A DNA stretch of 64,000 nt from Octopus vulgaris (taxonomy: Eukaryota): contig OX597834.1 in the NCBI GenBank assembly GCA_951406725.2, positions 37,138,001 to 37,202,000 on the forward strand, read 5' to 3'. The position numbers and the translations under genes are program-made. Positions 14,168-59,780 of this stretch are shown here, one piece after another; the first letter of the stretch is position 1, and each line of letters begins with the position of its first letter. The notes under the pieces are model-generated. The model saw only the letters and a list, made by a program, of their open reading frames with translations, ran no database searches and was not told where the DNA came from.

Positions 14168-15439
14168 GTGAGAATACCATTACTTCAATGTTATATATCT
14201 TATGTTTGTTAATATTATTTTGTCTGTTTTACGGCTGTCGCTCTGAAAATTGTACATGTTTTATGGCAATCGGTTAATTTACTATATTCATTTTGTTATT
14301 GGGATTAATATAAGTATTTTCTTAGAATCACCTTCCTTTCTTCTATAGGCACAAGGCCTCGAATTTGTGGGGAGGGGATAATCAACCCCAGTACTTAACT
14401 GGTACTTAATTTATTGACCCCGAAATGATGAAAGACAAAGTCAAACTAAGCGGAATTTGAACTCACAACGTAGCGGCAGACGAAATACCGCTAAGTATTT
14501 CGCCCGACTGCCAGCTCACCGCCTTCTTACAATCACTTCATCGACTGTACCTATCACGAATATGCGCAATCTTGAGTGGGAACCTGGTTCGAGAATTTCA
14601 GGGTCTTGGAGAGTGTGGTAGAATTTTTGAGTCACCATTGTTCCGAGGTCTACTGTGTCCCGGTGTAATATCACTCTTCAGGGTCCCATTTATGGTTTGA
14701 ATCGCATGTATCCACCCAAGACAGGGAATGCTGAAATAATGGGATGCAGCATGGTGAATGGGAACAATTTTGTCAGATGAACTTATTGAGTCAATGGTTA
14801 ATTAATGGTTAAATATTGACTGGGTGAACAGACATTAAACTGATAATGGCACGGATCATCTAGTCGAGTTAGAGAACTACTGTTATCATCAAGATAGCGT
14901 TCGAAGATGAGACATTTTAGTAAGAGAAACATCAATGTGACTAAAACCCAAACCAGACATCCATGGTGGAAGCACATGACCTAGTAGTTAGAGCAGCGGA
15001 CTCACGGTCGAGGGATCGTGGGTTCGAATCTCAGACCGGGCGATGTGTGTGTTTATGAGCGAAACACCTAAGCTCCACGCGGCTCCCGCAGAAGGCAATG
15101 GCAAACTTCTGCTGACTCTTTCGCCACAACTTTCTCTCACTCTTTCCTCCTGCATCTTGCAACTCCCCTGCGAGGGACCGGCGTCCCGTCCAGGTGGGAA
15201 ACCTATACGCCAAGGAAACCGGGAAACCGGCCCTTATGAGTCAGGCGTGGTTCGAGAAGGAACAAACAACATCAGACATCCATGTCTCGTCGCTCGATTC
15301 GGGTCGCTTGGCGTGGATGAGTTAAAAGTGATCCAGGCAAGTCATCCGACCAATTTGATTGCATCATACTTAAATGTGACTGATTGTTCGAGATAACACC
15401 ATCTATAAACGTATTGTGTTTAAAAGTGTAAAAGGCGAA

Positions 15440-18506: not shown

Positions 18507-19287
18507 GAAAAAACGAAACTCGTCAATACGACATTTTAGCAAAAAAATGATGGATTCGTATAGCGATAGACAGAACGCTATTAATATTGTTTAAAAAAAC
18601 GTTATATGATATAACGTCATAAGTAGCTAACAGAAAGAGTAGGGATATTAATAGTGAATGTTAAATATAAAGGAAATTAAAGTTTAAACTATATATAATG
18701 ATAGAGACTACTTATATGCACTAAAAGTATGTTTCTGCCAATGCTTACATCTGTATGCTCGTTCTATAACCGTGTTTACTAGAGTATTTTTAGAAAAAAT
18801 AATGAAAAATAGCTCAGAATTGCAGAGAAGACAGAATTTCTTGCCTTTGTCATAAGGTATCGAAATTGAGAGGATCAACCATTCTAAATGAAATTGTTCA
18901 TTGTGGTCTTTTAAATCCCAAATCAGTTTGCTGAGACCGGTACTATTCCGTTTATTTCTATCCCTAAATGTTGAGTAATGGATAGAAATTCTTTTAGATA
19001 ACTCTAACGATGTGCTTCCAATGTAAAATCGTACTTTATTACGAGTACTGATTACACACTGGTATATAGAATTTTTAATCTTAGAGTTACTTGACATAAA
19101 TTTAATTCTATTGGAATTGACTTCAGATACAATAACCTTGTTATTAATATTTCTAGAGGGTTGGATGGTATTAGCTAAATTAATGTTAGTATTAGTAAAT
19201 GCAATAATATTTAATAGCGTTCTGTCTATCGCTATACGAATCCATCATTTTTTGCTAAAATGTCGTATTGACGAGTTTCGTTTTTTC

Positions 19288-31054: not shown

Positions 31055-31271
31055 TCTGACAGACAGACAGATAGATAGGTGGTTATACTTAGAATGTCTT
31101 TCATCTTATGTCTCCTCAATCAAAGCTGTCCTAGAGTTAAACAACAAAGGTGATAAATACACATTCTTAATACGAACAGACGGTCACTGATGGAACGGCT
31201 TTGATCGTACTTTTGCTGGACCAGACGGCTCACCTCGTTTTAAATGAACAAAAATAACAAGATGAACTTAC

Positions 31272-31481
31272 TCTGAAGTTTTCATTCATGAAGCCATAGA
31301 TGATGGGGTTCACACAGGTGTGGGCAAGAGCTAACCATTGCAGGAAAAGCCATGTAAGAGTTGAACGGACATAAGAAAAACTTAAGTATTCACCTTCGTG
31401 TATGAGGAACAGTTGAAATATAGTGAAAGGTATCCAACATAAACCGAAAAGGACAACAATTACAAACAGCATGCTTACAAC
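31272..31481 (-). CDS. GPCR B exon 2 (TM6-TM7)
   Basis: Acceptor ttttcag; 210 nt, the same length as in A; CWIPF and [13 protein letters not shown]; donor GTAAGT. Confidence 0.92.
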
Positions 31482-31494
31482 CTGAAAATAGAAG

Positions 31495-31542
<48 letters not shown>

Positions 31543-31706
31543 TGTGCGTGTACGTGTGTGTGTATGTGTGTGTCTGTGTGTGTGTGTGTGTATAGATAGA
31601 TAGATAGGTATATATATGTATATATATATATTTATATATATATACATATGTATATATATATATATGTACATATGTGTATATATATATGTATATACATTTG
31701 TATATA

Positions 31707-31737
<31 letters not shown>

Positions 31738-34700
31738 ATTAGAGACAAAACCACTATTTTGCAAAACAAACAAGGAAAGACTTAATCGTATAGTTTGTTT
31801 ATCTGTATGAGTGTGGGTGTGTAAATATTGTTGTATATATCGAGTTTAGTGAGTATGTATATGCGTATATGTGAGGGAGTATATGTATATGTTGTGTGTG
31901 TGTGTTTTGCGTATGTGTGTTTGTGTGTGAATGTGTATATGGGTTTGTTATATAGGTTTGGGGATGTATGTGTTAATTTGTCTGTGTGGGGAGGGAGTGG
32001 GTTTTTGGTGTATATTGAGGTTTATACGTTAGTATAGGTATGTGTGAGTGAGGTGGGTATTTGTATAAGTCGTGGGTCTGTGGTTTACGTGTGTGTATTT
32101 GTGTGTGAATGTTTAGGTTAGGGGGATTGCTATATAGGTTTGTTATAGAGTTTAGCAAAGGGAGATTTTATCATTATATGTTTTCGTGAGTTTTGGTTTA
32201 TCATGGTAGTTTTGTTAAAGAATTCGTAGTAATTTGTCTATTTGCGATGTTTGTTGTTTTGTTGCATTGTTTCATTCATAATTTTTGAGTGGTGTTCGTC
32301 TTACCACGTGAATATTATTTTTAATTCCATTTTTCCATTTCTCCATTCATAATTTTAAAAGATGTTCGTTTCCAGAGCGGGAATACTTTTTATACATATG
32401 TTAGGTTCCTTGGTAACGTATTTTTGTTTGGTGTATATGTTGAGGCTTATATGTACTTGTGGGTGTGTGTGAGTGGGGTGGGTGTTTGTATTTGTTATGG
32501 GTGTGTGGTTTACGTGTGTGTATTTGTGTGTGAATGTATAGGTTAAAGGGATTGCTATATAAGTCTGTTATAGGGTTTAGTAAAGGGAGGTTTTATCATT
32601 TATGTTTTTATGTACAAACGTGCATAGTAAAGGGAGCCCCATCACTACACTCAATGCATACTCTCACCTATCCGCACGGATGTGGAAGCGAATCACCGGT
32701 GTATATATTGAGGCTCATACGTAGCACTATGGAAGCGAACGTCATTGAAATTATGAATGGAATAAATGGAATTGGGAATTGTAACCGGGTGGTGGGCTAG
32801 CGTTGCTTAGGATTGGGAGTGGAATAGTGTAGTGAAATGGCAGACGTCGGGAATAGACGTGGATTGCTGCGAGTTATTTATTGAAACTGCCAGGATAAGC
32901 TAGAGCTCATAAATACATATAATAATTTATCATGGTAGTTTTATTAAAGAATCCATTCATAATTTTTTTGAGTAGTGTTGGTTTGCCGCGTGAATATAGT
33001 TTTTAGTTCCATTTATTCTATTTCTCCATTCATAATTTTAAGTGACGTTTGCTTCCATGGCGCGTATTCTTTTTATACATAAGTTATGTTCCTATGGTAA
33101 CGTAATTTGGTTTGGTTTTTTTAACGGCTTAGAATTTAATTTCACTTCATAATTTGAAACTGACTTGTAAGTATGTATATTATTTCTCCTTATGTCATAT
33201 TGTTATTTTTGATATTATGGTTAATTACGATGTATTTTATATATCGTTTTATGTGTAATAATGTTGTTTTTCTTTGGAGTGTTTATGTATGTGAGATTGT
33301 GTGTGAGTGTGTGCGTATTTTGGTTGTATAGTTTGTTTATCTGTATGAGTGTGGGTGTGTAAATATTGTTGTATATATCGAGTTTAGTGAGTATGTATAT
33401 GCGTATATGTGAGGGAGTATATGTATATGTTGTGTGTGTGTGTTTTGCGTATGTGTGTTTGTGTGTGAATGTGTATATGGGTTTGTTATATAGGTTTGGG
33501 GATGTATGTGTTAATTTGTCTGTGTGGGGAGGGAGTGGGTTTTTGGTGTATATTGAGGTTTATACGTTAGTATAGGTATGTGTGAGTGAGGTGGGTATTT
33601 GTATAAGTCGTGGGTCTGTGGTTTACGTGTGTGTATTTGTGTGTGAATGTTTAGGTTAGGGGGATTGCTATATAGGTTTGTTATAGAGTTTAGCAAAGGG
33701 AGATTTTATCATTATATGTTTTTATGAGTTTTGGTTTATCATGGTAGTTTTGTTAAAGAATTCGTAGTAATTTGTCTATTTGCGGTGTTTGTTGTTTTAT
33801 TGCATTATTTCATTCATAATTTTTGAGTGGTGTTCGTTTTACCACGTGAATATTATTTTTAATTCCATTTTTCCATTTCTCCATTCATAATTTTAAAAGA
33901 TGTTCGTTTCCAGAGCGGGAATACTTTTTATACATATGTTAGGTTCCTTGGTAACGTAATTTTGTTTGGTGGATATGTTGAGGCTTATATGTACTTGTGG
34001 GTGTGTGTGAGTGGGTGTTTGTATTTGTTATGGGTGTGTGGTTTACGTGTGTGTATTTGTGTGTGAATGTATAGGTTAAAGGGATTGCTATATAAGTATG
34101 TTATAGGGTTTAGTAAAGGGGGAGGTTTTATCATTTATGTTTTTATGAGTTTTAATTATTCTGGTTACTTACGATGTATTTTATATATCGTATTATGTGT
34201 AATAATGTTGTTTTTCTTTGGAGTGTTTATGTATGTGGGATTGTGTGTGAGTGTGTGCGTATTTTGGTTGTATAATTTGTTTGTCTGTGTGAGTGTGGGT
34301 GTGTTAATATTGTTGTATATATCGAGTTTAGTGAGTATGTATATGTATATGGTGTGTGTTTTACGTATGTATATTTGTGTGTGAATGTGTTTATGGGTTT
34401 GCTATATAGGTTTGGGGATGTATGTGTTTATTTGTCTGTGTGGGGTTGAGTGGGTTTTTGGAGTATATATTGAGGTTTATATGTATGTATAGGTATGTGT
34501 GAGTGAGGTGGGTATTTGTATATGTCGTGGGTGTGTGGTTTACGTGTGTGTATTTGTGTGTGAATGTTTAGGTTAGGGGGATTGCTATATAGGTATGTTA
34601 TAGAGTTTAGTAAAGGGAGATTTTATCATTATATGTTTTTATGAGTTTTGGTTTGTCATGGTAGTTTTGTTAAGGAATTCGTAGTAATTTGTGTCTATTT

Positions 34701-35027
34701 ACGATGTCTGTTGTTTTATTGTATTGTTTCATTCATAATTTTTAAGTAATGTTCGTTTTACCAAGTGAATATAATTTTTAATTCCATTTGTTCCATTTCT
34801 CCATTCATAATTTTAAATGATGTCCGTTTCCAGAGCGGGAATGTGGGTTGTATGTGTGTGTGAGGGAGTATGAATAAGTATTGTGTTGAAGTATTTGGCT
34901 ATTTTATTTATTTATCGTTGCCTAGACGTTTTTATGTGTATGTATAGGGATATATATATAGGTGTGTGATTTAGTGTATGTATTTAGAGATGGTTATATA
35001 TAATTAGTTATATGTGTATGGGTGTAT

Positions 35028-35357
35028 GATTGATTGATTGATTCTAGTTTCAGCTTATGAGCTGTGGCCATGCTGGGGCACTTCCATTTGGTGTTGCTAC
35101 TTGGTTTCACTTCATGGAGGCTTTCTAGCAACTGCTATTTGGTGCATGAGAGAGTTTGATGCAGCTGCCCTCATCTGCCCCTCCTGCCGTGAAGTTGGTT
35201 CATCTGGGACACCTGACAGGAAGAGATCCAGCTTCATTTTAAAGACATCTGTATCCACCCCATGCAGGTCTCTCAGGTTCTTCGGGAGGATATTGAAGAG
35301 CTGTGGGCCTCGGAAGCCCAGGCTATCACAGAATCTTGTCCTACATCTTGATGGCAG
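35028..35357 (-). mobile_element. 5'-truncated CR1-like LINE 3' end, inserted in the left pLTR only
   Basis: Minus frame reads ..GFRGPQLFNILPKNLRDLHGVDTDVFKMKLDLFLSGVPDEP..; (TCAA)n tail; gtat duplicated on both sides; absent from the right pLTR at ~43467. Confidence 0.75.
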
Positions 35358-35581
35358 GTATATATAGTTTATTTTTTGTTTTGTTTTGTTTTATATTTTA
35401 TATTTTATATTTTATATTTAATTGTTGATAGGTTTATTTTAGTTTATATATTGTTTATATATTGATTATATATGGATTATATATAGGTTATATATAGATT
35501 ATATATTTATATTTTTTCATTAATACTTTAATTATTTTAAAATTTTTATATTTTAAAATATTGATATTTTAGATTGGAAGT

Positions 35582-35624
35582 CCACCTGAAGATTGTCGAT
35601 CAGGACAAGAAACAATTGTAGTGG
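35582..35624 (+). ncRNA. Minimal type I hammerhead ribozyme (5' pLTR)
   Basis: ccac-CTGAAGA-ttgtc(gatcag)gacaa-GAAA-caattg-TA-gtgg: intact core, palindromic stem III, GUA cleavage triplet. Confidence 0.9.
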
Positions 35625-35859
35625 CAGTTTTTTTGACTTTTTATTAAAATTTTATGTATTGATTAAGTCTTTCCTTGTTTGTTTTGCAAAATAGTGGTTT
35701 TGTCTCTAATAATATTATATAATATTTTACTATAAAAATGGATTTAATCCTAAATCTGATTTTTTCCCTGTAAATTTGGATTTATTCCCTAATATTTATT
35801 ATTTTTATTTAATATTGATAATTTTGTATATTGAGTGTAATACCTCAATTTTGTAAATT

Positions 35860-38397
35860 ATGGATTTTACAGGTAAGATAGAACCGCCGTTTTGGGATTC
35901 ATCTTTGAAAGATATTCCTATTCCTTCTAGAAAGGAATTTATCTTGAAACTTGTTAATAATGTTAAAGATTTTATTTCTAGAATTAAATGGAAAGCTTTT
36001 TACTATAATTTTTATTTATTTAATGATATTGATAGTAGGAATGATAATTTTACCTCTAAATTTAAATCTAGAAAGGAACCTCCATTTAATAAAGAATTAC
36101 AATTACTTGAAGATAGTATATGGAAGGTGGTAAAAAATATTGAATTCCATAAATACGCAAATAGAAATAATGAATATTTAAGGAACTTAGCAATTAAAAT
36201 TAAAGATATGAGAAATATGGATGGTATTATAGTACAATCTGATAAAACAAGGAACCTATATAAATTAGATGTTAAATTATATGATAAACTATTAGGGAAA
36301 GAAATAATTAAAAAATATAAAATTGTTCCAGATGATATTCTTTATAATATTAATAAGGCCTCTAAATTAGTAATGTTAAAATATGAGTTGGATAATAAAA
36401 CTGAACCTTATGTACCTTTGCACCCCAGAATTACTCTTAAAGACCATAAAGATAATTTTTATTGAGACCCTAAAGTTAGATTAATTTGCCCATGTAAATC
36501 GGACCTAGGTAAATTAAGTAAATTTATTTTAGATAAATATATCGATAAGTTAAATAAACTTAATTATTTAAAATTATGGTTTAGTAATAACAATACATTG
36601 AAATGGTTTAATAATATTAAAGATAAAAATCGTTATAAATTTATTCAAATAGATATAGATAATTATTATTCTTCTATTAATGAAATTGTGTTTAATAAAG
36701 CGCTTATTTTCGCAATGAATAAAGTGGGTATGTCACGGGAAGAAGTTAATGTAATTAAAATGGCTAGGAAATCGCTAATTAAATATAAAAATAAATTATG
36801 GGCTAGGAATGATACTAGAGATTGTTTTGATATACCTATGGGAGCACCAGATTCTGCACAGGCTACTGATTTAGTAGGTATTTTTCTTTTATCTGAACTC
36901 CAATTAGAAAATCTTAAGATAGAGGGTGGCTTATATAGAGACGATCTTCTACTAGTTACAAAGAATTGTACTAATAGGAATCTAGAAGTATATAAGAAAA
37001 AACTATATAGTTTCTTTAAAAGATATGGTTTAAGTGTTACTATATATAAGGAGAATTATAATGTTAATTATTTAGATGTTAATTTTAATCTTATTACTGG
37101 TAAAACACAACCATATCATAAACTTAATGAGAACCTTAGATATATAAATGTTAATAGTAATCACCCATTTTCTATTAAAAAATCGTTGATTAATAATATA
37201 AGTAAACGTATTTCATTACTCTCTTATGATATAGAGATTTTTAATAAACATGCTAATTATTATAATGAGGCCCTTAGAGGGGCAGGTTATAATAGGAATA
37301 TTAAATTTTATAATATTAGTGATAAAGATTTAAATGATAATTTTCGAGATACTTCTAATAATAATTATAATTTTGTTAGGTTTGGTGGTAAAAATAGTAG
37401 ATATTATAAAAATAATAAAAATGATAAAAATATAAATAATAATAATAATAATAATAATAAAAATAATAATAATAATAATAAAAATAATAATAATAATAAT
37501 ACAAATAAGAATAATAAAAATAAAAATAAATTTAATAATTATTATAATAATTATATTGATAAAATTAATAATATTAATAATTCCTTAAATGCTGTACATA
37601 GATATAATTCTGATAATAATTTTAATAAAATAAATAATTATAAATATATTTATAATAATGATAATAATAATAAGGATAATAAGAATAAAATTTGGTTAAT
37701 AGTTCCTTATGGAGATCAAGTAAAAACGAATATTATTAAAGAGATTTTAGATGTTATTGAACTATTTATTAGAGATAATCGTAAATATAGAAACATTTTC
37801 TCTATTAATAATTTTGGAGTAGGTTATTCTACCACTAATAATGTAGGTAACATTATTTCTTCATTTAATAAATATAAACTGAATAATTTTTATAAAAAGA
37901 AATTATTAGGTAATAATATTAATAATGATAAGACTTATATTAATTGTACATGTAGAGTTAAATCTAATTGTATATTAAATAATAAATGTGATATTAACGA
38001 TGTAGTGTATAAATGTATAGTTACATTACATGATAATAACTTTAAGAATAATAATTACCCAAAAGCGGTTTATATAGGTTCTACTTCCTCAAAAATAAAA
38101 TTAAGAATCGCACAACATATGAATTCTTTTAAAAATAAAAACTTAATCAACTCAACCGGACTTAGTAAGTACATTTGGAGTCTTAAATCACTAAATATTA
38201 ATTATAGTTTAATTTGGGAAATAATTTGTAAAACTAAATCATATACTATAGGAGCTAATTGTTGTTATTTATGCTCTAATGAGTTAAAAGAAATTTTATT
38301 TTATAAGTATGATAATTTACTTAATACTGGTGAAGAGCGCAAAATAAAATGCAGACATAAGTTACTTTACCTATATAATAAGTTTCATGATAAATAG
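35860..38397 (+). pseudogene. PLE polyprotein: reverse transcriptase + GIY-YIG endonuclease, 845 codons with one in-frame TGA at 36463-36465
   Basis: ORFs 35860-36465 and 36598-38397 are in the same frame. RT motifs ITLKDHK, MGAPDSA and GLYRDD. Cys knuckle CTCR..C..C, then VVYKC..YIGST, CYLC..E and LN..E..CRH, typical of the Naiad/Chlamys clade. Confidence 0.9.
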
Positions 38398-41300
38398 CTT
38401 TAATAGTTCCCTATTAGGTTACTTTAGTTTAGTTTAATTTAGTTTAGATAATTATATTTATTTGGTTATGCAGTCTAGGCTTTAATTATAGTTAGTCTTT
38501 ATTGATATTTCTTTGTTTTAATTAGTTCATTTTTAATGTATATTAATATAACAGTTTATGGTACGTTAAAACTTTAATAATTTATATTAGATTTTTTTAT
38601 TTTCTTTAATTATATATTTTTTTTATTTTTATTTTATTTTATTATGTATTTTTATTATGTATTTGTTATATGTATATTGGAGGATATATTTATATGGATG
38701 ATGGGTGTTATTTAGTGGTGTATATATTGAGTTTTGTATGTATGTGTGAATGTTTACGATCCCTTTGTTTTTTATTTGGTATGTTGAATTGACAGATTTT
38801 ATTTGGGTATTGTCTGTTATAATAAAGTACACACACCCATAACAAATACAAGTGCCCACCTCATTCGCGCGTACCTGGAATAACGTATGAGCCTCAACAT
38901 ATACACCAAGGGACCACTCCCGCCCCACACGGACAGATAAACACATACATCCCCAAAAATGGGCGCAATCCCACTCACACCAATAATACATGTATACAAT
39001 TACACACACAAGAACAATACATAACTAACCCAAATATACAGAACATACCACAAATCACCAACAAACCACCATCACAAATGAAACCCACACCCATACAATG
39101 ACAAAACTCCCCCCTCCATACCCAATTACACCCACATAGCAATCCCCATATATTCATCCATACACAGGCGCGCATGCGCAGAACACACACACACAACACA
39201 TACGTACAACCCCCCAAACACACTCATATACATACGTATCAGACTCGACATCCACAACAATACGCTCACATCCACTCACACCCAGATAAACAAACTACAC
39301 AACCAAAAAACGCACACACACACGTGTGCGTATTTTAATTGTGCAATTCACCCATCCGCATGAATGCGGGCGCGAACACACCGTTGCACATATCGAGCCC
39401 AACAAGCATGCACATATACATGTGAGGGGTACACGCACATGCCGTGCGTGTATACCCCCCGCACTTATACCCGTGCGCGAATATACATATGGAGACTACA
39501 ACACAGGCACAAACGTGCATAGCAAAGGGAGCCCCATCACTACACTCAATGCATACTCTTACCCATCCGCACGGATGTGGAAGCGAATCACCGGTGCATA
39601 TGTTGAGGCTCATGCGTGGCACTATGGAGGCGAACGTCATTGAAATTGTGAATGGAATAGGTGGAATTGGGAATTGTAACCGGGTGGTGGGCTAGCGTTG
39701 CTTGAGATTGGGAGTGGAATAGTGTAGTGAAATGGCAGACGTCGGGAATAGACGTGGATTGCTGCGAGTTATTTATTGAAACTGCCAGGATAAGCTAGAG
39801 CTCATAAATACATATAATAATTTATCATGGTAGTTTTATTAAAGAATCCATTCATAATTTTTTTGAGTAGTGTTGGTTTGCCGCGTGAATATAGTTTTTA
39901 GTTCCATTTATTCTATTTCTCCATTCATAATTTTAAGTGACGTTTGCTTCCATGGCGCGTATTCTTTTTATACATAAGTTATGTTCCTATGGTAACGTAA
40001 TTTGGTTTGGTTTTTTTAACGGCTTAGAATTTAATTTCACTTCATAATTTGAAACTGACTTGTAAGTATGTATATTATTTCTCCTTATGTCATATTGTTA
40101 TTTTTGATATTATGGTTAATTACGATGTATTTTATATATCGTTTTATGTGTAATAATGTTGTTTTTCTTTGGAGTGTTTATGTATGTGAGATTGTGTGTG
40201 AGTGTGTGCGTATTTTGGTTGTATAGTTTGTTTATCTGTATAGTTTGTTTATCTGTATGAGTGTGGGTGTGTAAATATTGTTGTATATATCGAGTTTAGT
40301 GAGTATGTATATGCGTATATGTGAGGGAGTATATGTATATGTTGTGTGTGTGTGTTTTGCGTATGTGTGTTTGTGTGTGAATGTGTATATGGGTTTGTTA
40401 TATAGGTTTGGGGATGTATGTGTTAATTTGTCTGTGTGGGGAGGGAGTGGGTTTTTGGTGTATATTGAGGTTTATACGTTAGTATAGGTATGTGTGAGTG
40501 AGGTGGGTATTTGTATAAGTCGTGGGTCTGTGGTTTACGTGTGTGTATTTGTGTGTGAATGTTTAGGTTAGGGGGATTGCTATATAGGTTTGTTATAGAG
40601 TTTAGCAAAGGGAGATTTTATCATTATATGTTTTTGTGAGTTTTGGTTTATCATGGTAGTTTTGTTAAAGAATTCGTAGTAGCTTGTCTATTTGCGATGT
40701 TTGTTGTTTTGTTGCATTGTTTCATTCATAATTTTTGAGTGGTGTTCGTCTTACCACGTGAATATTATTTTTAATTCCATTTTTCCATTTCTCCATTCAT
40801 AATTTTAAAAGATGTTCGTTTCCAGAGCGGGAATACTTTTTATACATATGTTAGGTTCCTTGGTAACGTATTTTTGTTTGGTGTATATGTTGAGGCTTAT
40901 ATGTACTTGTGGGTGTGTGTGAGTGGGGTGGGTGTTTGTATTTGTTATGGGTGTGTGGTTTACGTGTGTGTATTTGTGTGTGAATGTATAGGTTAAAGGG
41001 ATTGCTATATAAGTATGTTATAGGGTTTAGTAAAGGGAGGTTTTATCATTTATGTTTTTAGGTACAAACGTGCATAGTAAAGGGAGCCCCATCACTACAC
41101 TCAATGCATACTCTCACCCATCCGCACGGATGTGGAAGCGAATCACCGGTGTATATATTGAGGCTCATACGTAGCACTATGGAAGCGAACGTCATTGAAA
41201 TTATGAATGGAATAAATGGAATTGGGAATTGTAACCGAGTGGTGGGCTAGCGTTGCTTAGGATTGGGAGTGGAATAATGTAGTAAAGTGGCAGACATCGG

Positions 41301-43691
41301 GAATAGACGTGGATTGCTACGAATTGTTTGTTGAAACTGCCAAGATGAGCTAAAGCTCATAAATACATATAATAATTTATCATGGTAGTTTTATTAAAGA
41401 ATCCATTCATAATTTTTTTGAGTAGTGTTGGTTTGCCGCGTGAATATAGTTTTTAGTTCCATTTATTCTATTTCTCCATTCATAATTTTAAATGACGTTT
41501 GCTTCCATGGCGCGTATTCTTTTTATACATAAGTTATGTTCCTATGGTAACGTAATTTTGGTTTGGTTTTTTTAACGGCTTAGAATTTAATTTCACTTCA
41601 TAATTTGAAACTGACTTGTATGTATATTATTTCTCCTTATGTCTTATTGTTATTTTTGATATTCTGGTTAATTACGATGTATTTTATATATCGTTTTATG
41701 TGTAATAATGTTGTTTTTCTTTGGAGTGTTTATGTATGTGAGATTGTGTGTGAGTGTGTGCGTATTTTGGTTGTATAGTTTGTTTATCTGTATGAGTGTG
41801 GGTGTGTAAATATTGTTGTATATATCGAGTTTAGTGAGTATGTATATGCGTATATGTGAGGGAGTATATGTATATGTTGTGTGTGTGTGTTTTGCGTATG
41901 TGTGTTTGTGTGTGAATGTGTATATGGGTTTGTTATATAGGTTTGGGGATGTATGTGTTAATTTGTCTGTGTGGGGAGGGAGTAGGTGTTTGGTGTATAT
42001 TGAGGTTTATACGTTAGTATAGGTATGTGTGAGTGAGGTGGGTATTTGTATAAGTCGTGGGTCTGTGGTTTACGTGTGTGTATTTGTGTGTGAATGTTTA
42101 GGTTAGGGGGATTGCTATATAGGTTTGTTATAGAGTTTAGCAAAGGGAGATTTTATCATTATATGTTTTTATGAGTTTTGGTTTATCATGGTAGTTTTGT
42201 TAAAGAATTCGTAGTAATTTGTCTATTTGCGGTGTTTGTTGTTTTATTGCATTATTTCATTCATAATTTTTGAGTGGTGTTCGTTTTACCACGTGAATAT
42301 TATTTTTAATTCCATTTTTCCATTTCTCCATTCATAATTTTAAAAGATGTTCGTTTCCAGAGCGGGAATACTTTTTATACATATGTTAGGTTCCTTGGTA
42401 ACGTAATTTTGTTTGGTGGATATGTTGAGGCTTATATGTACTTGTGGGTGTGTGTGAGTGGGTGTTTGTATTTGTAATGGGTGTGTGGTTTACGTGTGTG
42501 TATTTGTGTGTGAATGTATAGGTTAAAGGGATTGCTATATAAGTATGTTATAGGGTTTAGTAAAGGGAGGTTTTATCATTTATGTTTTTATGAGTTTTAA
42601 TTATTCTGGTTACTTACGATGTATTTTATATATCGTATTATGTGTAATAATGTTGTTTTTCTTTGGAGTGTTTATGTATGTGGGATTGTGTGTGAGTGTG
42701 TGCGTATTTTGGTTGTATAATTTGTTTGTCTGTGTGAGTGTGGGTGTGTTAATATTGTTGTATATATCGAGTTTAGTGAGTATGTATATGTATATGGTGT
42801 GTGTTTTACGTATGTATATTTGTGTGTGAATGTGTTTATGGGTTTGCTATATAGGTTTGGGGATGTATGTGTTTATTTGTCTGTGTGGGGTTGAGTGGGT
42901 TTTTGGAGTATATATTGAGGTTTATATGTATGTATAGGTATGTGTGAGTGAGGTGGATATTTGTATATGTCGTGGGTGTGTGGTTTACGTGTGTGTATTT
43001 GTGTGTGAATGTTTAGGTTAGGGGGATTGCTATATAGGTATGTTATAGAGTTTAGTAAAGGGAGATTTTATCATTATATGTTTTTATGAGTTTTGGTTTG
43101 TCATGGTAGTTTTGTTAAGGAATTCGTAGTAATTTGTGTCTATTTACGATGTCTGTTGTTTTATTGTATTGTTTCATTCATAATTTTTAAGTAATGTTCG
43201 TTTTACCAAGTGAATATAATTTTTAATTCCATTTGTTCCATTTCTCCATTCATAATTTTAAATGATGTCCGTTTCCAGAGCGGGAATGTGGGTTGTATGT
43301 GTGTGTGAGGGAGTATGAATAAGTATTGTGTTGAAATATTTGGCTATTTTATTTATTTATCGTTGCCTAGACGTTTTATGTGTATGTATAGGGATATATA
43401 TATAGGTGTGTGATTTAGTGTATGTATTTAGAGATGGTTATATATAATTAGTTATATGTGTATGGGTGTATATATAGTTTATTTTTTGTTTTGTTTTGTT
43501 TTATATTTTATATTTTATATTTTATATTTAATTGTTGATAGGTTTATTTTAGTTTATATATTGTTTATATATTGATTATATATGGATTATATATAGGTTA
43601 TATATAGATTATATATTTATATTTTTTCATTAATACTTTAATTATTTAAAAATTTTTATATTTTAAAATATTGATATTTTAGATTGGAAGT

Positions 43692-43734
43692 CCACCTGAA
43701 GATTGTCGATCAGGACAAGAAACAATTGTAGTGG
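43692..43734 (+). ncRNA. Minimal type I hammerhead ribozyme (3' pLTR)
   Basis: Identical to 35582-35624. Confidence 0.9.
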
Positions 43735-43906
43735 CGGTTTTTTTGACTTTTTATTAAAATTTTATGTATTGATTAAGTCTTTCCTTGTTTGTGTTGCAAA
43801 ATAGTGGTTTTGTCTCTAATAATATTATATAATATTTTACTATAAAATTGGATTTAATCCTAAATCTGCTTTTTTCCCTGTAAATTTGGATTTATTCCCT
43901 AATATT

Positions 43907-43981
<75 letters not shown>

Positions 43982-45538: not shown

Positions 45539-45782
45539 TGAATACTGCTTCAGTTGCGTGCATAGGGTTATGTCAATTACAGTTGTTGTCATAAAATAGA
45601 TGCAATTAATAGAACTATTGTAAGAAAACACTTATATTAATCCTATTAACATATAATATAGATATAGTAATCTAACCGATTGCCCTAAAAATATGGACAG
45701 ACTTCAGAGTGACTCTCGTAAAACAGATAGGACAATATTAACAAACACAAGTTATATAATATTAAAATGATAATAATCTCAC

Positions 45783-46448
45783 CTTCATTTTGACTCTTGT
45801 GGCCAGCTGGTCCCTATTCCGGTTCTCATTTTCTGGTGTTATCCTCTTCCACAAGAAGTTAGCAAGTATTGTGTAAGTTACAGTTAGCATAGTAAAAGGC
45901 AGGAAGCAAGTACAAATGCTCATCACCCACTGATAAATCAAATATGACCATTCTCCCCAGGTACCTATGCATGTCACATAGTTTTCTCCACCATAGTTAA
46001 TTTTTTCAATTCTGATGAAAAAAAGGGGTACGGAAGATATTGTTGCCGAGAGCAACCAGATCAGGGCGATTGTAGGCGTAGATCTAGACGTCGATATCCG
46101 ATATTTTAGTGGGAACAATATAGCGAAAAGTCGATCAACACCAATCGCCACATTCGTAGAGGAACTCATGGTTATAGAAAATGACTGAAGAAAATCAACC
46201 AGAGTGCAATAGACCGGGGAAATAAACGATTCGGGAATATAGATAATTATTAAGGTGAATGGGAGACAGAATATTCCCATGATTAGATCAGCAACTGCCA
46301 AATTGAGAAGGTAAGGTTTAAAGTCCGTTTTACATTTCTTACCTTTGGCGAAGACTATTATTGATAATATATTACCAGAAATTGAAGCAAATGTTGATAA
46401 ACTGCAAAGAACTGTTAGAAAATTTAGCGCTAGAGTAGACGAAAACAT
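45783..46448 (-). CDS. GPCR B exon 1 (TM1-TM5), paralog of GPCR A
   Basis: GNILSIIVFAKGKKCKTD is shared with A; also NLAVAD and AIGVDRL. Same phase-0 donor GTGAGA after KMK. First in-frame ATG at 46448 (the ORF track starts at a TTG). Confidence 0.88.
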
Positions 46449-47074
46449 TTCAGCAGATATATGGGTAGAAATCGAATCACCTCGGTTTTCTAAAGATTTT
46501 GCTGTAGGCAAGTTATTTGCGGTGGGAAAAGTAGGAGAATTTTTACTGTTTCTGATTTTAAACTTTCGAATTTGAAAATTAGAGAGAGGATGTGTGAGGA
46601 TAATCAGGCAGAATATAATTAAGATGTGTGAGTGAGAGGGAAAGAAAGAGAGATCGAGTATGAGTGAGACAAAGGCAGTGTTAGTTGCAGTAAGAGGGAA
46701 GAGAGAGATATGCAGAGTATGAGTGAGTGAAAGACACTCAGTTTAAGGGAGTGAAAGACAGAGACAGTGAGAGAGGACGATGGAAATAGAAACACAGAGA
46801 GGGAATGTGAAAAAGAGAGAGGGAACGAGAGGGCGAGAGATCGTGAGTTATGGAAATTAAGAGAAAAAAGGTGGTAGACAGAGTGAGAAAGAAAGTGAGA
46901 GAAAGAGAGAGAAGAAAAAGAGTATGTGTGAAAGGGAAAGATTTGGAAGAGAAAGAGAAACAGTGTACGTGAGAGAGAGAGAAAGAGAGAGAGAGATTGG
47001 GAGAGAAAGAGAGAAAGAGACGGGGAAAATAGACAGACAGACAGTCAGAAAGACCACGTGCAAGTTAGAGTGAA

Positions 47075-49449: not shown

Positions 49450-52400
49450 GCTGTAAAGACGTTTTCCGATTCAAAATTTTAGTTCATTCCAAAACCTCGC
49501 TAATATAAGTATCTATTTATATTTTACATCTTTAAATCGTCAATTTTAATATCTATAAGTCTTTGGTGTAATAATATTTTTCTTATGTAAATATTGTTGT
49601 TTATGTAATGATCTAATTATCGTAATTTTCTATATAATTATTAGATATTAAATTTAAGTTTATTCGTAACATATTACTTAGCGATAGATGTGTTGTTTGA
49701 TAGCAAGATTACGAGTTGTCTAAAGTTAGATTTATGTACATACATGTATTAATAGTATTAATTGTAGTTTTAAATTTCTTATAATTAAAATTAGATAAAC
49801 TTAGATATGCTTCGACCAAAGATTGGTCCAGGCTATGTCTAACTTAATAGCTTAACTTAGTTATTGTCTTTTTAAATTGATATTTGCCATTGATAAATAT
49901 ATTTATAGTATTTTTAGTATTTATTCGATACTATATAACTACGAATTGATTATTTGCATAAGTATTTTAAATAAGATCTCCGAAAGTTCGTTTAAGTTTG
50001 TTTGGTTGTATTTTTGAATTTAGATATTTCATCTTTAAATATGAAATATTAATTTATTAGCTCTTTATTATATGTGCATATATATTTATTTATAGAGATT
50101 ATTTTAGATCTCAATTATAATAATTATATACATATATATATATCCATTGATAATTTTTTATATATAATAGTCATTTTTAAAAAATATTTATGTAATTAGG
50201 TATAGACTTTTACTGACATTAGATTTTCGGTGGGTTTCTTACCTTAAAATTTAAATTAATATTTAACATTATAATCGATTTTGATATAATCATAATTATT
50301 ATGTTTTAAGTTTCTAGTTTGATAATAGAGTTTATTATAAGTAAAATTATTATATTATTTATATCTTTAAAATATTGTTTAAATATTTCTGATTATTTTA
50401 AAAATATTTCAACTAACCTGAAGATTGGCTGTAACCATAGCTCAAATTATTTATTGAATATAAATTATTGTTATTCGAATTGGTACAGCCATGAAACGAT
50501 CGTAGTGTTTTACTCTTTATCTTTTATGAAACTTTTAATACTTTTGATATTTATATATAAAATTTTTTTAAATAAAATAAATGAATAAATAAATAAATAA
50601 AAATAAATGAATTAATTAATTTATAAACAAAATAATATATAAATATAAAAATATACATATATATATATTTGTATATATATATTTAAATTTATGAGTTTAA
50701 ATTATTGTAATAATTTTTAAATTTTTAACTTTTATATTTTAAAATTAATTTTACGTATTGGCTTATGTTTTTCACTGTTTGATTTGCCTAATAATGGTTT
50801 TATCTTTAATTTAATATAATATAATATAATATATTTATACTATAAAATTGGATTTAATCCTGAATCTAATTTTTCCCTGTAAGTTTGGATTTTTTCCCTA
50901 ATATTATTATTATTAATTAATATATTGATAAATTACGTAAATTGAATGTTATTACAGGTAAGATAGAACCGCTATTTTGGAATTCATCTTTGAAGGATAT
51001 TCCAATACCTTCTAGGAAAGAATATATTTTGAAACTTATTAATAATATTAAGGATTTTGTTTCTGGAATTAAATGTAAAGCCTACTATTATAACTATAAT
51101 ATATCTAATTTTAATGATTGTATGAATGATAATTTTACTTCTAATGTTAAATCAAAAATTGAACCCCCATTTAATAGAGAATTACAAATACTAGGAGATA
51201 ATATTTGGAAGGCGGTGAAAAACATTAAATTTCATTAATACACGAACAGAAATAATGAATATTTAAGAAATTTAGCAATTAGAATTAAAGAAATGAGAAA
51301 TATGGATGGTATTATTGTACAATCAGATAAAACTAAGAATCTCTATAAATTGGATGTTAAATTATATGATAACCTTTAAGAGAAAGAAATAATAAAAAAA
51401 ATATAAAATTGTTCCAGATAGTATACTTTATAATATTAATAACTCCTCTAAATTAGTAATGATAAACTATGAGTTGGATAATAAAACTGAACCTTATGTA
51501 CCTATGCACCCTAGAATTACTCTGAAAGACAATAAAGATAATTTTTATTCTGACCCTAAAGTTAGATTAATTTGTCCATGTAAATTTGACCTTGTTAAAT
51601 TGAGTAAACTTATTTTAGATAAATATTTAAGTAAATTAAATAAACTTAATTACTTAAAATTATGGTTTAGTAATAATAATACTTTAAATTGGTTTAATAA
51701 TATTAAAGATAAAAATCGATATAAATTTATTCTAATAGATATAGATAATTACTATTCTTCTATTAATGAAATTGTGTTTAATAAGGCCCTTATTTTTGCA
51801 ATGAATAAAATGGGAATGACTTTTGAAGAGGTTAATGTAATTAAAATGGCTAGGAAATCGTTTATAAAGTACAAAAATAAATTATGGGCTTGGAAAGATA
51901 CTAGGGACTTTTTTGATATACCTATGGGAGCACCTGATTCTGCACAAGCTACGGATTTTGAAGGTATTTATCTTTTATCTGAACTCCAGTTAGTAAATTT
52001 AAAAATAGAGGGTGGTTTATATAGGGATGACCTTCTACTTATTACTAAGAACTGCACTAATAGGAACATAGAAGTATATAAGAAAACACTTTATAGTTTC
52101 TTTAAAAGATATGTTTTAAGTATTACTATACATGATGAGAATTTTAATGTTAATTATTTAGATGTTAATTTTAATCTAATTACGGGTAAAACACAACCAT
52201 ATCATAAACTTAATGAGAACCTAGATATATAATTATTAATAGTAATCACCCACCATCAATTAAAAAATCGTTGATTAATAATATAAGTAAACGTATATCA
52301 TTACTTTCTTATGATTTAGAGATTTTTAATAAACATGCACATTATTACAACGAGGCCCTCAGAGAGGCAGGTTATTATAGTAATATTAAATGTTTTATAA

Positions 52401-53720
52401 AAATTAAGATAAAACTATTAATAATAGACATAAAAATATTAGTAATATTTATAATGATTTTATTAGTAATACTGGTAATCTTAGTAATTATAAAAATAAA
52501 AATAATATAAATAAAAATATGAATAAAAATAAAAATAATAACTTTAATAATTCTTTAAATGTTAATTATAATTATAAATTTAAATCTAATAATGATAATA
52601 ATAATATGATAAAGAAATATAATAATAATAATGGTAACAATAATAATGATAGTTTTAATAATAATAAGATGCAAAATAAGAATAAAATTTGGTTAATATT
52701 TCCTTATGGTGCTCAAGTTAAAACGAACATTATAAAAGAGATTTTAGGTATTATTTAACTATTTATTCGAGATAATCTTAAATATAAAAACATTTTCCCT
52801 GGTAATAATTTTGGAGTGGGTTATTCCACCACTAATAGTGTAGGTAACATTATTTCTTCTTTTAACAAATTTAAACTGAATAATATTTATAAAAAAGATA
52901 AGACACTTATTAATTGTACATGTCGAGATAAAACTAAATGGAAGTTAAATAATAAATGTGATATTAACGATGTAGTGTTTAAATGTATAGTAACATTACA
53001 TAATGAGAATAGTCAGAATAATTACAATTCAAACGTGATATATATAGGGTCCACTTCCTCTAAAACAAAATTAAGAATCGCACAGTATATGCATTCATTT
53101 AAAAATAAAAACTTAATTAACTCCACTGGACTTAGTAAGTACATTTGGAGACATACATCCCAAAATGTTTATTATGTTTTATCATGGGAAATAATTAGTA
53201 AGGCTAAATCATATAGTATATGAGGGAATTTTTGTTATTTATGTTCAAATGAGTTTAATGAAATTTTATTTTATAGGCATGATAATTTAGTGAATCACTG
53301 GGATGAGCGCAAAATAAAATGCAGACACAAGTTACTTTACTTGTATAATAAATTTCTTGATAAATAACGAATATTTCTTATCCTTAATTAGCTCCTTATT
53401 TGTTGATTTATGTAATAGTATTCTAGATTAGTAAGATAAAATATTTAGATTAAACTTAATGTTTACCTCTATTTTTGTATTAAAGTATGAATATAGAAAT
53501 TTATATACGTATTTATTTATATGATATATGAGTTTGTGTGTGTATGTATATATATGTATAGGTTGATGTTCGTGTATATATATGTATATATATATACATT
53601 TATTTGTGGGTGTGTGTGGGTGGGTGTGTGTGGGTGGGTGTGTGTATATAAGTGTATGTGTATTTATTGAGCATTGTATGTATGTACATGTATGTATGTG
53701 TATGTGTGTATTTGAGTGCA

Positions 53721-55725: not shown

Positions 55726-58700
55726 CTTTTTTTTTCTTCTTTCAAATTTGCTTCCATTTCTTGCCGAGTGTCTTCCCGACTCCTAGGGCAAAGAAACTCA
55801 TAGAATACATTGGTAAGCCATTAAACCAAACTCAGTAGTTCCTTTATTTTTTTATATTATTTTTTTTTTTAAAGTTAAATTAAAATACATGAGCAGCAAC
55901 AGTTCTCACATCGACAATGCTCTTCTTAATACGTGTGATGTACCAGTTAAGACAATCTTTTGCACTTCTTGCAGGGATGGTAAGCCAGGGATCATTCTCA
56001 TATAATTTTCGGTTCCCTTCTTGATCATTCCTAGTGCTCCTACGATCACTGGTATTGTAACCGCCTTGAGATGCCACATTTTCTCAATTTCAATGAGTAG
56101 GTCTTTATATTTTCTGAGCTTGTCAAACTCTTTCGCTGAGATATTATGATCACAGTGGATGCTCATGTCGATCAATAAGCAAACTTTATTGTTTTGGTCT
56201 TTCACAACAATATCTGGTTTATTGGCCTTGATGATTCGGTCTGTATGTACTGGAAAGTCCCACAGAATGGTTACATTTTCTCCTTCAGTTACAGCCTCAG
56301 GGTGGTGATTATACCACTTGTCGGCAGTTTTGATATTGTAATGCCGACTTATTAGCCAGTGGAGATATTGGCCAACTCTGTCATGTCTTAATTTATACTC
56401 CACTGGTGCTAAGACTTTACATCCAGAGATTAGGTGGTCCACTGTTTCAATCATGTCTTTGCAGAATCGGCATTTTGGGTCTGCTCCATTTTTCATCACA
56501 TTGGCCGGGTAGTTCCGGGTTAATAGGCTTTGATCTTGAGCAGCCAGGATGAAACCTTCGCTTTCTGCTTTTAGCCCTGAGCTCCGTAGCCACTGATGGG
56601 TTTGCTTCTGGTCAACATCAGCTTGTTTGCTGCGGGTCACATGTTTGCCGTGCAGAGGTTTCTCCTCCCACCTATCAGCCAATTGCTCGTGCGCTTTTTT
56701 CATTGCCATCATTTTCACCTTCTTTGCAACAATAGTTGCCGTACTTCCCTCGGGTTGTTCAGTTTGGGTATCCTGCACGAGATCAATAGCAACTTTTTGC
56801 TTTCCTTTATGATAGAATGAAGCTTCTTTCGTCTCTCGTGATTTTCCACGAGCTTTAGCATCCAGTCATTCGATATTTCGAGATATTTGGCCAGTCCAAT
56901 TGTGGTTGTTTTGTAAGCTAGTTCAAATTGGATCAGGCCTCGACCTCCTTGGGCTCTGGGAAGGTAAAGGCGATCTACGTCTGCCTTTGGGTGGTGCATC
57001 CTATTACAACTCAGCAGCTTGCGTATTTTCCTATCTATATTCTTTACTTCACTCATATTCCAGTTCAACACATTGTAGCTATAAGTAACAACTGGAACTG
57101 CTAAGGAATTTATAGCTAACACCTTGTTACGTGCATTTAGTTCAGATTTTAGGACTGCACGAACTCTCCTATAACATTCCTTCCTGATTTTCTCTTTCAT
57201 GCTTGCATGCTGAATACCAGAGCCTTCATTTATCCCTAAATATTTGTATGTTTGTTCTTGCTCAAGCTCTCTTATGACTGTGTCAACATCTAACACGACT
57301 GAATTTGTGGTCTTCACTTTCCCTTTCTGGAAAGTGGCCTTGGCACACTTCTCAAGTCCAAACTCCATCCCGATGTCATCGCTGAATGCTTTCACGGTAT
57401 GCAATAGGCCTTCAAGTTCATTATTGTCTTTACCATAAAGTTTTAAGTCATCCATATGAAATAGATGGCTTATTTTTTTATTGGCAATTTTATACCCATA
57501 CCCTGTTCTGTTTAATTCACTTGTAAGGGGTATTAGGGCTATGCAGAATATTAAAGGTGAAAGTGAGTCACCTTGAAAAATTCCACAGTTGATGTTTATA
57601 TTTTCTGAGGCAAGTACTCCATTAGAGTGGTATAATTGGAGATTCGTATTCCACAACGACTTATTGTGCTTCAGGAAGTTTGAAACCACAGGGGAAATTT
57701 TGAAGATGTCCAGCGATCTCAAGATCCATGGATGCGGTATACTGTCGAAGGCCTTTTTATAGTCAATCCATGCGGTGCTGAGATTTCTGCGCTTGTTGTG
57801 ACAGTTCTCAAGGATCATACGATTGATTAGCAGTTGGTCTTTGCATCCGTAAGAGCCTCGGCGGCACCCTTTTTGTTCAATGGGGAAAATATCGTTCTTC
57901 TCCATGAATGCATATGTTTTCTCCGCCAGGATAGATGTTAGGATTTTATACGTGGTGGATAGACAGGTTATAGGCCGATAGTTTTTTGGAAGGTTGGTTT
58001 CGTTATTCTTTGGGAGTAGGTAAGTAATGCCACTTGCTAACCATTCAGGTGTTTTCTTTGGGTCTCCCATAATTCCATTGAGCAGCTGAACTAGCTTACC
58101 GTGTGCGCATGGGAGCGATGCGAGCCAGAAATTCGGCACCCTATCTTTACCGGGGGATTTCCAATTATGGGCCTTCGTGAGTGCCTTTCTTAGGTCTGCT
58201 ATTGTGATGTCTTCCCATGCTTGTTGTTGTAAATTTTGGTAGGATCCTTCAGTTTGTATATTCCAGTCTGCATTTATGTTGTACGTCTTCTTATCACTCC
58301 AAATCCTTTTCCAAAAGTTTTGAACTTCTTCCATGGGAGGGGGTCTTTAACGGTTACTTTCTCCTTCCCTATTTCTCTGTAGAATTTTTTGGCATTGGAT
58401 GTGAACAGCTTATTTTGCTTGTAAAACTTGTTTCTCTTCTCAAATCTTCGTATTCTTTGGGCTTTTGCTTGGAGTTTTTGTTTCAGCGTTTCTTTTATTG
58501 ATATCAGTTCTTCTCTTGGTGAGGATCCAAATTTTCTCTTCATCTTTCTTCCTGTTCTGGATCTTACATCATTTCCACATATTAGTTCATTTAATATTGA
58601 TATTTCCCCTCTCATAAATTCAATCTCTTTTTCAATTTTACTTCTCCGGGTTTGATTTCTTCCCAGGTTTTGTTTTCTTTGTTTTTTCGGGGGCATACAG

Positions 58701-59780
58701 CTGGTTTCAATTGCTGTTCTGTATTGTTTGTGAATAGAGAAGTTGTGTTCGACCAGAGAGAATCTTAGCATCATCATTTTTTTTTTCCATGTGCGTTTGT
58801 GTTATTGCAATAAAAAGTGTTTGTATATTTCCTGTAAGGTAATATTGTGGAGGTTGAAGTTGACTTTTCTAGAGATGTTTGTATGTCCAGTTAGAAGAAC
58901 AGGTGTGTTTTTACAATAAAAAGTATATGTTTACATTTATATTTGAATATTCAGGGAGGAAGCAAAGAAAAGTCAGATTTTCATAGAAAGTTTTAGGGTT
59001 TTGTAAGTCCACAAAAAGAAAAGCGTGATGTTTTTAGAGAGAAGAAAAAAAAGGGGGGGATGTTTACAGAGGCAATTGTGGGTATCAAAGTTTTTAAAGC
59101 TGGTCGAATGTATGATTGAAAACTGTAGATATGTAAATTTGTAAATTTTCTTAACTTATTTTGAAGGGCTGTTCTGTATTATTTCTGAATAGAGAAGCTG
59201 TGTTCGACCAGAGAGAATCTTAGCATCATTATTTTTTCCATGTGCGTTTGTGTTATTGCAATAAAAAGTGTTTGTATATTTCGTGCAAGGTAATATTGTG
59301 GAGGTTGAAGTTGACCCCTCTAGAGATGTTTGTATGTCCAGTTAGAAGAACAGGTGTGTTTTTGCAATAAAGTGTATATGTTTACATTTATATTTGAATA
59401 TTCTGGGAGGAAGCAAAGAAAAGTCAGATTTTCATAGAAAGTTTTAGGGTTTGCAAGTCCACAAAAAGAAAAGCGTGATGTTTTTAGAGAGAAGAAAAAA
59501 AAAAGGTGCTTACAGAGGCAGTTGTAGGTATTAAAGTTTTTAAAGCCGATCGGATGTATGTTTGAAAGCTGCAGATATGTAAATTTGTAAATTTCTTAAC
59601 CCACTTTGAAGAAAATTTCAAATACTCACGAGGTATTGTAGATGTTCCAGTCTTTGAGAGTTATTTTTCCCCGTTGCTAAACTGGCCCATATTAGTGTTT
59701 CTATGGCTTTCAGCCACCGAACTGTCAGAGCAGTGAGGAACACGTCCAGCCGCTGTCAAGGCTGGCGCTCTTCTTCCATA
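55726..59780 (-). mobile_element. R4/Dong-like non-LTR retrotransposon (RT + CCHC + restriction-like endonuclease), frameshifted
   Basis: Three overlapping ORFs at 58274-58777, 56715-58334 and 55906-56778. Motifs NYRPITCL, DYKKAFDS, FQGDSLSP, HMDDLK, CRFC..H..GC, RHD, KPDIV..ID. Flanked by (TAA)n. Assigning 58780-59780 to this element is tentative. Confidence 0.88.
58713..59610. repeat. Two tandem copies of a ~455 bp unit
   Basis: gctgttctgtatt..gaatagagaag..tgtgttcgaccagagagaatcttagcatc occurs at ~58713 and ~59168, and the copies stay colinear. Confidence 0.85.

Follow-up and report, generated by a model that had tools for sequence, protein, structure and literature searches.

The stretch analyzed here (the window) comprises 64,000 nucleotides of the Octopus vulgaris genome (contig OX597834.1, positions 37,138,001 to 37,202,000 of the forward strand). 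The region considered within it belongs to a young Penelope-like element (PLE) with Hydra-clade motifs, of which it forms the 3′ tail. The open reading frame (ORF) of this element, at 35860..38397 on the plus strand, encodes a reverse transcriptase (RT), an Asn-rich linker and, at the C terminus, a GIY-YIG-like endonuclease. It contains one in-frame TGA (36463-36465) in the window; sibling copies have open frames of 838-862 aa, and 11 homologues were found, among them the full-length P0003. A Pfam profile search with the ORF gave no significant match, and the class was assigned from motifs, which fit a Hydra-clade PLE. RT motifs are combined with a C-terminal VYIG..T..K.R...H domain, and SDKTRN, CTCRVKSNC, CYLC and CRH agree with the DKT, CxCX5C linker, CxxC and CxH of that clade; the position of the N-terminal RWK reads RIKWK. 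Hydra-clade PLEs have been described as having a C-terminal GIY-YIG domain, these four motifs, a hammerhead motif and a (TA)n target (PMC8557442). A Naiad PLE, which would have an N-terminal endonuclease and no canonical hammerhead, was ruled out by the C-terminal position of the endonuclease and the presence of a hammerhead-like motif. In addition to the ORF, the following features are distinguished:

31497-31736: TA-rich array
31703..31787, minus strand: short inverted piece duplicating 35661-35746; it forms the 5′ end of the insertion and adjoins TA-rich repeats
31788..35831, plus strand: pseudo-LTR, an upstream partial tandem copy of the tail, broken by an unrelated insertion at 35028-35357
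35582..35624, plus strand: minimal type I hammerhead-like motif, upstream copy, with a CUGAAGA...GAAA core read from the sequence
38398..38825, plus strand: U1, AT-rich tail segment outside the inverted block, used as an internal control
38826..39322, plus strand: L, inverted former right arm of an old hairpin, with predicted sense pairing to G1/G2, gaining new A>G changes
38829..39821, no strand: the whole inverted block, in which type A and type B copies differ
39323..39632, plus strand: M, inverted former left arm, its extra Cs being A>G changes on the then-sense strand
39633..39821, plus strand: S1, inverted copy of the G-block tail, predicted partner S2 or the G tail
39822..40170, plus strand: S2, partner arm of S1
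40171..41058, plus strand: G1, G1 tail and G2, GT-rich blocks, partners of L
41060..42590, plus strand: recent duplication of 39505-41060
43692..43734, plus strand: minimal type I hammerhead-like motif, close to the 3′ end, from its sequence pattern
43912..43977, no strand: (TA)n target at the 3′ end

The unit measures ~8.1 kb in the window and ~6.5-7.3 kb in full siblings with the same tail arrangement (type B, see below). Its tail runs from the end of the ORF to 43911 and is followed by (TA)n; TA repeats are found at both ends of the element, in a host genome of 2.8 Gb that is rich in microsatellites. The pseudo-LTR matches the tail at 99% identity from 31788 to 35027 (40238-43471) and at 97% from 35358 to 35831 (43468-43942). 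The 330 bp in between (35028-35357) are an unrelated insertion, which resembles another repeat and is not found in the downstream copy. The hammerhead-like motif, a putative ribozyme, folds with stems I and II recovered at a z of ~0, and its regular expression matched in 11 of the 29 loci scanned; an Rfam scan of 30000-56000 gave 39 weak matches, all below the gathering score and none within 31788-43911, and did not detect the motif. Hammerheads and retrozymes are dealt with in a preprint (bioRxiv 10.64898/2026.07.22.740005).

The element lies antisense within an intron of a rhodopsin-type GPCR gene, two exons of which (45765-46622 and 31233-31487, both minus strand) correspond to positions 1-197 and 200-260 of the 7tm_1 profile. 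Because of this antisense position, the GPCR pre-mRNA would carry the minus-strand L-M hairpin at the window locus. The first exon of a second, similar GPCR (7tm_1) lies in the opposite orientation at 13400-14209 (plus strand). Other repeats in the window are an older, broken relative of the PLE with 77-83% identity and a short GT-rich tail (50730-53400, plus strand), a separate endonuclease-like fragment (18708-19244, minus strand), and a frameshifted non-LTR retrotransposon with an RVT_1 domain (55906-58801, minus strand).

A preliminary description of this DNA recognized in the tail one motif of ~500 nt in three versions, namely M, an inverted copy L and the GT-rich G, and held that nearly all differences, going from M through the reverse complement of L, revcomp(L), to G, were C>T or A>G. 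The three versions are indeed homologous, but they align over about 300-450 nt; L adjoins M as an inverted copy, as described, with the junction at 39322/39323. With all four transitions weighted equally in the alignment scoring, the M>revcomp(L) comparison (295 columns) gave 63 C>T, 44 A>G, 2 T>C, 4 G>A and 27 transversions, and the M>G comparison (274 columns) gave 67 C>T, 28 A>G, 5 G>A, no T>C and 14 transversions. In these two comparisons the skew is real and the spectrum is not symmetric. It does not extend to revcomp(L)>G (348 columns), where G>A (24) exceeds A>G (14) and C>T (13), with 3 T>C and as many as 41 transversions. S1 (39633-39821), overlooked in the preliminary description, is a second inverted, A>G-converted arm.

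The predicted folds, all of them single minimum free energy (MFE) structures, bear out a difference between the strands. On the minus strand, 39010-39640 folds into one long L:M hairpin of -296.7 kcal/mol (z -15.6, 20 shuffles), and on the plus strand the same interval reaches -139 kcal/mol (z -4.8) with no long L:M stem. The proposal that L pairs with M on the minus strand only thus holds for the local fold, but not for the whole minus-strand tail (38398-41058, folded without shuffles), where L pairs with the G blocks and L:M is outside the 12 largest pair classes. On the plus strand, pairing of L with G is predicted, though mostly through Watson-Crick pairs and not, as had been thought, through wobbles: G:U makes up 22/278 of the pairs with G1 and 14/78 of those with G2 (36/356 together). 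The predicted S1:S2 duplex on the same strand has 102 pairs, 29 of them G:U.

The history of these segments becomes readable when other copies in the genome are considered. Loci were chosen by similarity: the best 40 of 593 candidates from a query with L and M joined (87-100% identity) and 139 of 13478 RT candidates were scored, and the top 20 RT matches share 99-100% identity at the protein level. The family has three tail arrangements. Old copies (L041, L043, L051, L057) lack an inverted arm, and in them the GT-rich blocks follow directly on position 38824. On the sense strand of seven type A copies, revcomp(M) is followed by revcomp(L); in L102 the sequence 39821>38829 is reversed after the end of the ORF, which places the far end of the block at 39821, and L044, L096, L098, L100, L101 and L081 have most of the 38829..39821 block reversed. 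In type B copies, including that of the window, the block is inverted relative to type A. Trees of ORF plus U1 and of the tail show, by eye, the same ladder from old copies to type A to type B, with the window copy near the base of type B (the ORF parts of L005 and L016 were left out, and L103 and L105 were unused). Derived copies diverge by 1.1-1.9% in the ORF, 11-13% in L and 12-15% in M, the tail thus evolving ~10x faster. G1 and G2 blocks are GT-rich also in older subfamilies without any inverted arm. The older subfamilies L048-L050 and L053 have different, internally duplicated GT-rich tails, and the architecture of the tail has a much higher turnover than the ORF. A young sister family of the PLE (L061-L066), ~55% identical in the RT, has many near-identical copies and a tail of ~60% G+T. 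No comparable edited hairpin was seen in the older subfamilies and this sister family (29 loci; 16 for direct repeats), several of whose repeat matches look like microsatellites.

The type A copies preserve the polarity of the changes. The sense-strand hairpin of L044 comprises 431 columns: 253 Watson-Crick, 110 with G of a G:U pair on the left, 59 with U on the left (169 G:U in all), one A.C and 8 transversion-type. Those of L096, L101 and L098 resemble it; L102 and L081 were included with noisy alignments (41 and 50 transversion-type columns), and L100, whose centre motif was unmatched, was left out. With the hairpin-free L043 as outgroup for the right arm's first 330 nt, A>G on the left arm accounts for 80 of 81 C/T differences between the arms, and A>G on the right arm for 41 of 42 A/G differences. 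Analogously, L051 gives 76/77 and 38/41, and L057 gives 78/83 and 33/43. Since A>G is thereby placed on both sense arms, the apparent C>T is A>G seen on the other strand, and the skew has one main cause, A>G on the sense strand, not two. In the window itself, with L043 and L051 as outgroups, it is revcomp(L) that agrees with the outgroup at 49 of 49 C/T differences between M and revcomp(L), and A/G differences likewise polarize as A>G in 24/33 and the opposite way in 9/33. The suggested direction from M through L to G must therefore be abandoned, because M holds the derived state for the C/T class. Polarized by copies from elsewhere in the genome, as had been proposed, both classes of difference are A>G on the sense strand, one per arm.

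About half of the As of the old hairpin were affected: 165/294, 169/314 and 161/295 (54-56%) in three type A copies, which are not independent. Nearly all old-hairpin A>G changes are common to the type A copies. The changes are spread fairly evenly along the old stem. In L044, 80/127 of the As that follow U, 45/74 of those after A, 29/67 after C and 11/26 after G are changed (chi-square p = 0.022, 0.004 and 0.077 in the three non-independent copies), and among 3′ neighbours G is highest and U lowest. Depletion after a 5′ G is weak (p 0.03-0.15), and in the right arm of L044 10/18 such As are changed. On the branch leading to the clade that has the hairpin, covered in part, 1 change falls in the ORF and 2 in U1. 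A hairpin centre free of edits was searched for by its pattern with 0 matches, which does not show absence, and no partly edited early hairpin was found.

New A>G changes followed the inversion. Unambiguous parsimony events were counted in 47 type B rows, with ambiguous states uncounted. On internal branches, A>G events per exposure number 0/6071 at synonymous sites of the ORF and 0/3126 within U1, 40/8883 within L and 48/2597 within S1; for T>C the values are 1/3644 (L) and 0/2472, and the excess of A>G has a p of 4e-13. M had 9/3621 and the G1 tail 14/2274, and T>C amounted to 0-1 events in each tail region. The excess persists on terminal branches (39/8894 in L vs 3/5286 at ORF synonymous sites, p = 2e-5). 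S1 is the segment most strongly converted since the inversion: from L102 to the window it shows 43 A>G among 100 As and one other change, and in L the same comparison yields 22 A>G and 3 C>T beside 6 further changes. The changes came in bursts, with branches of 10/0/0, 14/0/0, 9/0/0, 25/1/2 and 29/9/9 (A>G/C>T/transversions). Per branch, A>G is poorly correlated with transversions (rho 0.17, p = 0.12), and the corresponding value for C>T is 0.72. The 5′ neighbour again matters (A/U vs C/G, p = 1e-6; 5′ G alone, p = 0.30). Spatial clustering was given no weight, because transversions also cluster (44 vs 26.8).

The relation of the new changes to pairing is less sharp. Within L, 71/13104 paired As and 3/2939 unpaired As changed, a ~5x difference (p = 4e-4). 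Over the whole tail the contrast is small, with 63/11058 paired vs 19/5514 unpaired on internal branches and 53/10938 vs 29/5504 on terminal ones, and in S1 pairing, as given by the single MFE folds, makes little difference to A>G. In the L:M register no preference for A.C mismatches was observed (23/3667 vs 19/3557). The ORF and U1 have no A>G on internal branches and paired As are in excess in L, but unpaired As of the tail also gain G.

The two M2+S1 copies that result from the 41060..42590 duplication differ at 25 sites, 21 of them A/G and none transversions. The upstream S1 copy (32614-32925) combines parts of both downstream S1 copies as a mosaic, its 3′ half having 2 differences from the first copy vs 12 from the duplicate, and, on these sequences, points to a probable template switch during insertion. 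This mosaic rules out the idea that the 17 A/G among 26 differences between the tandem units of the window represent editing in the last round.

In our opinion, it is highly probable that the skew among L, M and G arose by A-to-G change on both arms of successive hairpins, a host ADAR editing the RNA and the RT of the element fixing the edits in DNA. What the copies show is the order of the arrangements, the two-arm A>G polarity, its restriction to certain regions, the bursts, the decay and the want of covariation; that the enzyme was ADAR, that it acted on RNA, that the PLE RT fixed the edits and that this took place in the germline is what we infer from the pattern. An inverted duplication of a GT-rich tail block would first have produced a perfect stem of ~440 bp in the sense RNA; its end state is seen in type A copies, and PLE insertions routinely produce perfect inverted copies. 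Some 56% of the As on both arms (~169 sites) then became G, presumably by ADAR, on a branch with almost no other change. Because inosine is read as G, G:U pairs would follow from the chemistry alone. A block of ~990 bp was next inverted to give L, M and S1, which leaves the old wobble hairpin decaying on the minus strand. Finally, the new predicted sense duplexes L:G and S1:S2, products of this inversion, took A>G bursts in successive master copies, probably from the same enzyme. The element remained active throughout, and no function of the duplexes is needed.

Several properties of the data match this ADAR reading. A>G is found on one strand only and on both arms of a long duplex, and the affected fraction in the long perfect duplex, 54-56%, is about half of the As. 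ADARs acting in vitro reach a plateau at 50-60% of As. The host genome has four loci with an A_deamin domain (ADAR or ADAT). Metazoan ADARs prefer a 5′ U or A and disfavour a 5′ G, and favour a 3′ G and disfavour a 3′ U (PMC9989829); the order observed here is the same, with 5′ U/A above C/G and 3′ G at the top and U at the bottom, the 5′-G depletion being weak. Contigs from two presumed-RNA and two presumed-DNA runs show the same variant classes, a comparison that cannot separate editing from differences between copies.

An inverted repeat in DNA is not sufficient for the skew, because fresh inverted flanks lack it: all 9/9 such flanks, which are products of insertion, match their direct partner at 98-100% identity and are unskewed, their differences adding up to 4 of the wobble type, 8 of the A.C type and 7 transversions. 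Passage through the transposition cycle thus appears to be needed for A>G. The changes might have arisen in that cycle at the level of DNA or of the RT, by wobble misincorporation or by deamination of adenine in a folded plus-strand DNA intermediate, and not by ADAR on RNA. Such a cause would suit the modest neighbour preference and a general sense bias of the element, with more A>T than T>A and more C>T than G>A, its replication being strand-asymmetric. We consider it improbable, however, as errors of fold-back copying would strike the new arm only and would give C>T as well, and here both arms are affected and nearly only by A>G; spontaneous deamination of single-stranded DNA favours C, and neither the ORF nor U1 acquired A>G on internal branches.

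The bias itself deserves comment. Sense C>T is in excess in L (33/7581) and M (31/3587) relative to G>A (0/2080 and 2/3391). After the inversion, C>T prefers a 3′ purine (CpA/CpG context, p = 7e-7), is independent of pairing (79/10827 vs 16/2419, p = 0.79) and clock-like, and is weakly commoner than at synonymous sites of the ORF (p 0.01-0.02 on few sites). In the ORF too, whose third positions are T-rich, A>T exceeds T>A. We read the residual C>T as a general replication bias of the element that is not explained by ADAR. The suggestion that reverse transcription fixed past deaminations as a fossil record, accompanied by block inversions, gains support from the two-arm A>G polarity, but loses its C-to-U part. 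Transversions, A>T foremost among them, outnumber transitions in the ORF, and on the sense strand A>T, C>T and C>A are each in excess over their complements; such a spectrum of replication errors is unusual.

The fate of the old hairpin bears on another reading, according to which selection holds long RNA duplexes on both strands, as in a viroid- or retrozyme-like or a self-regulating hairpin RNA, and wobble changes are merely tolerated. Because the block was inverted, the minus-strand hairpin of type B copies is the old sense hairpin. The strength of its fold in the window (z -15.6) and the spread of two successive inversions through the family would be in keeping with selection. The folds of L and M on that strand nevertheless range from -279 to -291 in L044, L096 and L101, through -219 to -256 in early type B copies and -231 in the window, to about -195 in late type B copies; the weakening is not monotonic across copies, but the hairpin decays after the inversion. 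Two-sided changes were observed in 2/267, 4/372, 1/93 and 1/100 pairs, against 0-6 such pairs in slid controls, and compensatory change is thus no commoner than in these controls. Neither the compensatory covariation nor the conserved fold expected of a selected structured RNA was found. Moreover, purifying selection cannot lift A>G far over the synonymous rate and would also admit C:G>U:G, of which the old hairpin shows about one case, and the older subfamilies L043, L051 and L057 have no inverted arm. On internal branches A>T is rarer at long-range paired sites (6/11058 vs 31/15753, p = 0.002), which hints at weak selection on the sense duplex. For the minus strand, selection on both strands is largely refuted, and we regard it as very unlikely to explain the skew.

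That two deaminases (A-to-I and C-to-U) turned M into G, or that G is a bisulfite-like or assembly artefact, is scarcely credible and, as a reading of the M/L/G skew, already refuted: the unpolarized M>G comparison does resemble C>T plus A>G, and a real C>T excess in CpA/CpG context followed the inversion, but the outgroups reverse the polarity by making M derived, the C/T class being A>G on the then-sense strand of M, post-inversion C>T is pairing-independent and clock-like, and the variants are no artefact, because they are common to congruent ORF and tail trees and to contigs of independent runs.

Inherited marks of a host deaminase in genomic retroelements are familiar from APOBEC DNA editing, which leaves G>A in genomic copies after acting on minus-strand cDNA. 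The likeness to the present case lies in deaminase marks that became fixed; the enzyme, the minus-strand cDNA substrate and the G>A change differ, since here the change is A>G and is confined to an inverted-repeat tail. Closer in chemistry are two avian retroviruses for which conversion of almost 50% of the As to G within an inverted repeat or LTR has been reported (PMC12925331). In them, as in this PLE, about half of the As in such a part of a reverse-transcribing element changed at the DNA level; those cases are virus isolates, whereas the present changes are passed on within a retrotransposon family of the host, come back with every new inversion and allow ordering along a tree. Where repeats are hyper-edited in RNA (Alu, frog Harbinger, lizard Penelope, octopus), the long intramolecular dsRNA substrate and the change are the same; octopus RNA has among the highest levels and lizard Penelope is heavily edited in RNA, but this editing, as reported there, is RNA-level and not inherited (PMC5625713). 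A role of ADAR editing in how Alu subfamilies evolve was called logical but undetermined in a 2016 review (PMC4982230). With Hydra-clade PLEs the element shares, besides the motifs given above, partial tandems and inverted 5′ copies; elements of that clade are generally <3 kb, a typical and not a strict trait, whereas the tail alone reaches 3.5-5.5 kb here and has internal inverted blocks, and the part of the description consulted makes no mention of edited hairpins (PMC8557442). Thus, the enzyme chemistry is known, but we could not find its setting, an inherited retrotransposon family, described; our search, in which subscription papers were incompletely covered, found no publication that reports a retrotransposon family with ADAR hyper-editing both serial and inherited.

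The tail of this element offers a clean, ordered case of RNA edits that were likely turned into inherited DNA via a retrotransposon, and a natural saturation data set for the preferences of the host enzyme. It provides a signature that can be searched for in genomes alone, namely inverted repeats in which C/T and A/G are the only differences between the arms and polarize as two-arm A>G. Such repeats mimic bisulfite conversion or C-to-U editing and, because the tail diverges ~10x faster than the ORF, distort the dating of repeats. The finding would imply ADAR activity in the cells where heritable transposition takes place, in an animal group best known for neural editing. More tentatively, and with considerable doubt, one may suppose that ADAR hyper-editing in the cephalopod germline is a routine inherited mutagen of retroelements, with each new inverted duplication in an active PLE tail edited at about half of its As and then returned to DNA. 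A ratchet of this kind might have built the G-rich tail, the surviving masters perhaps being those whose dsRNA was broken up, so that a host defence would both drive and serve the evolution of the transposon.
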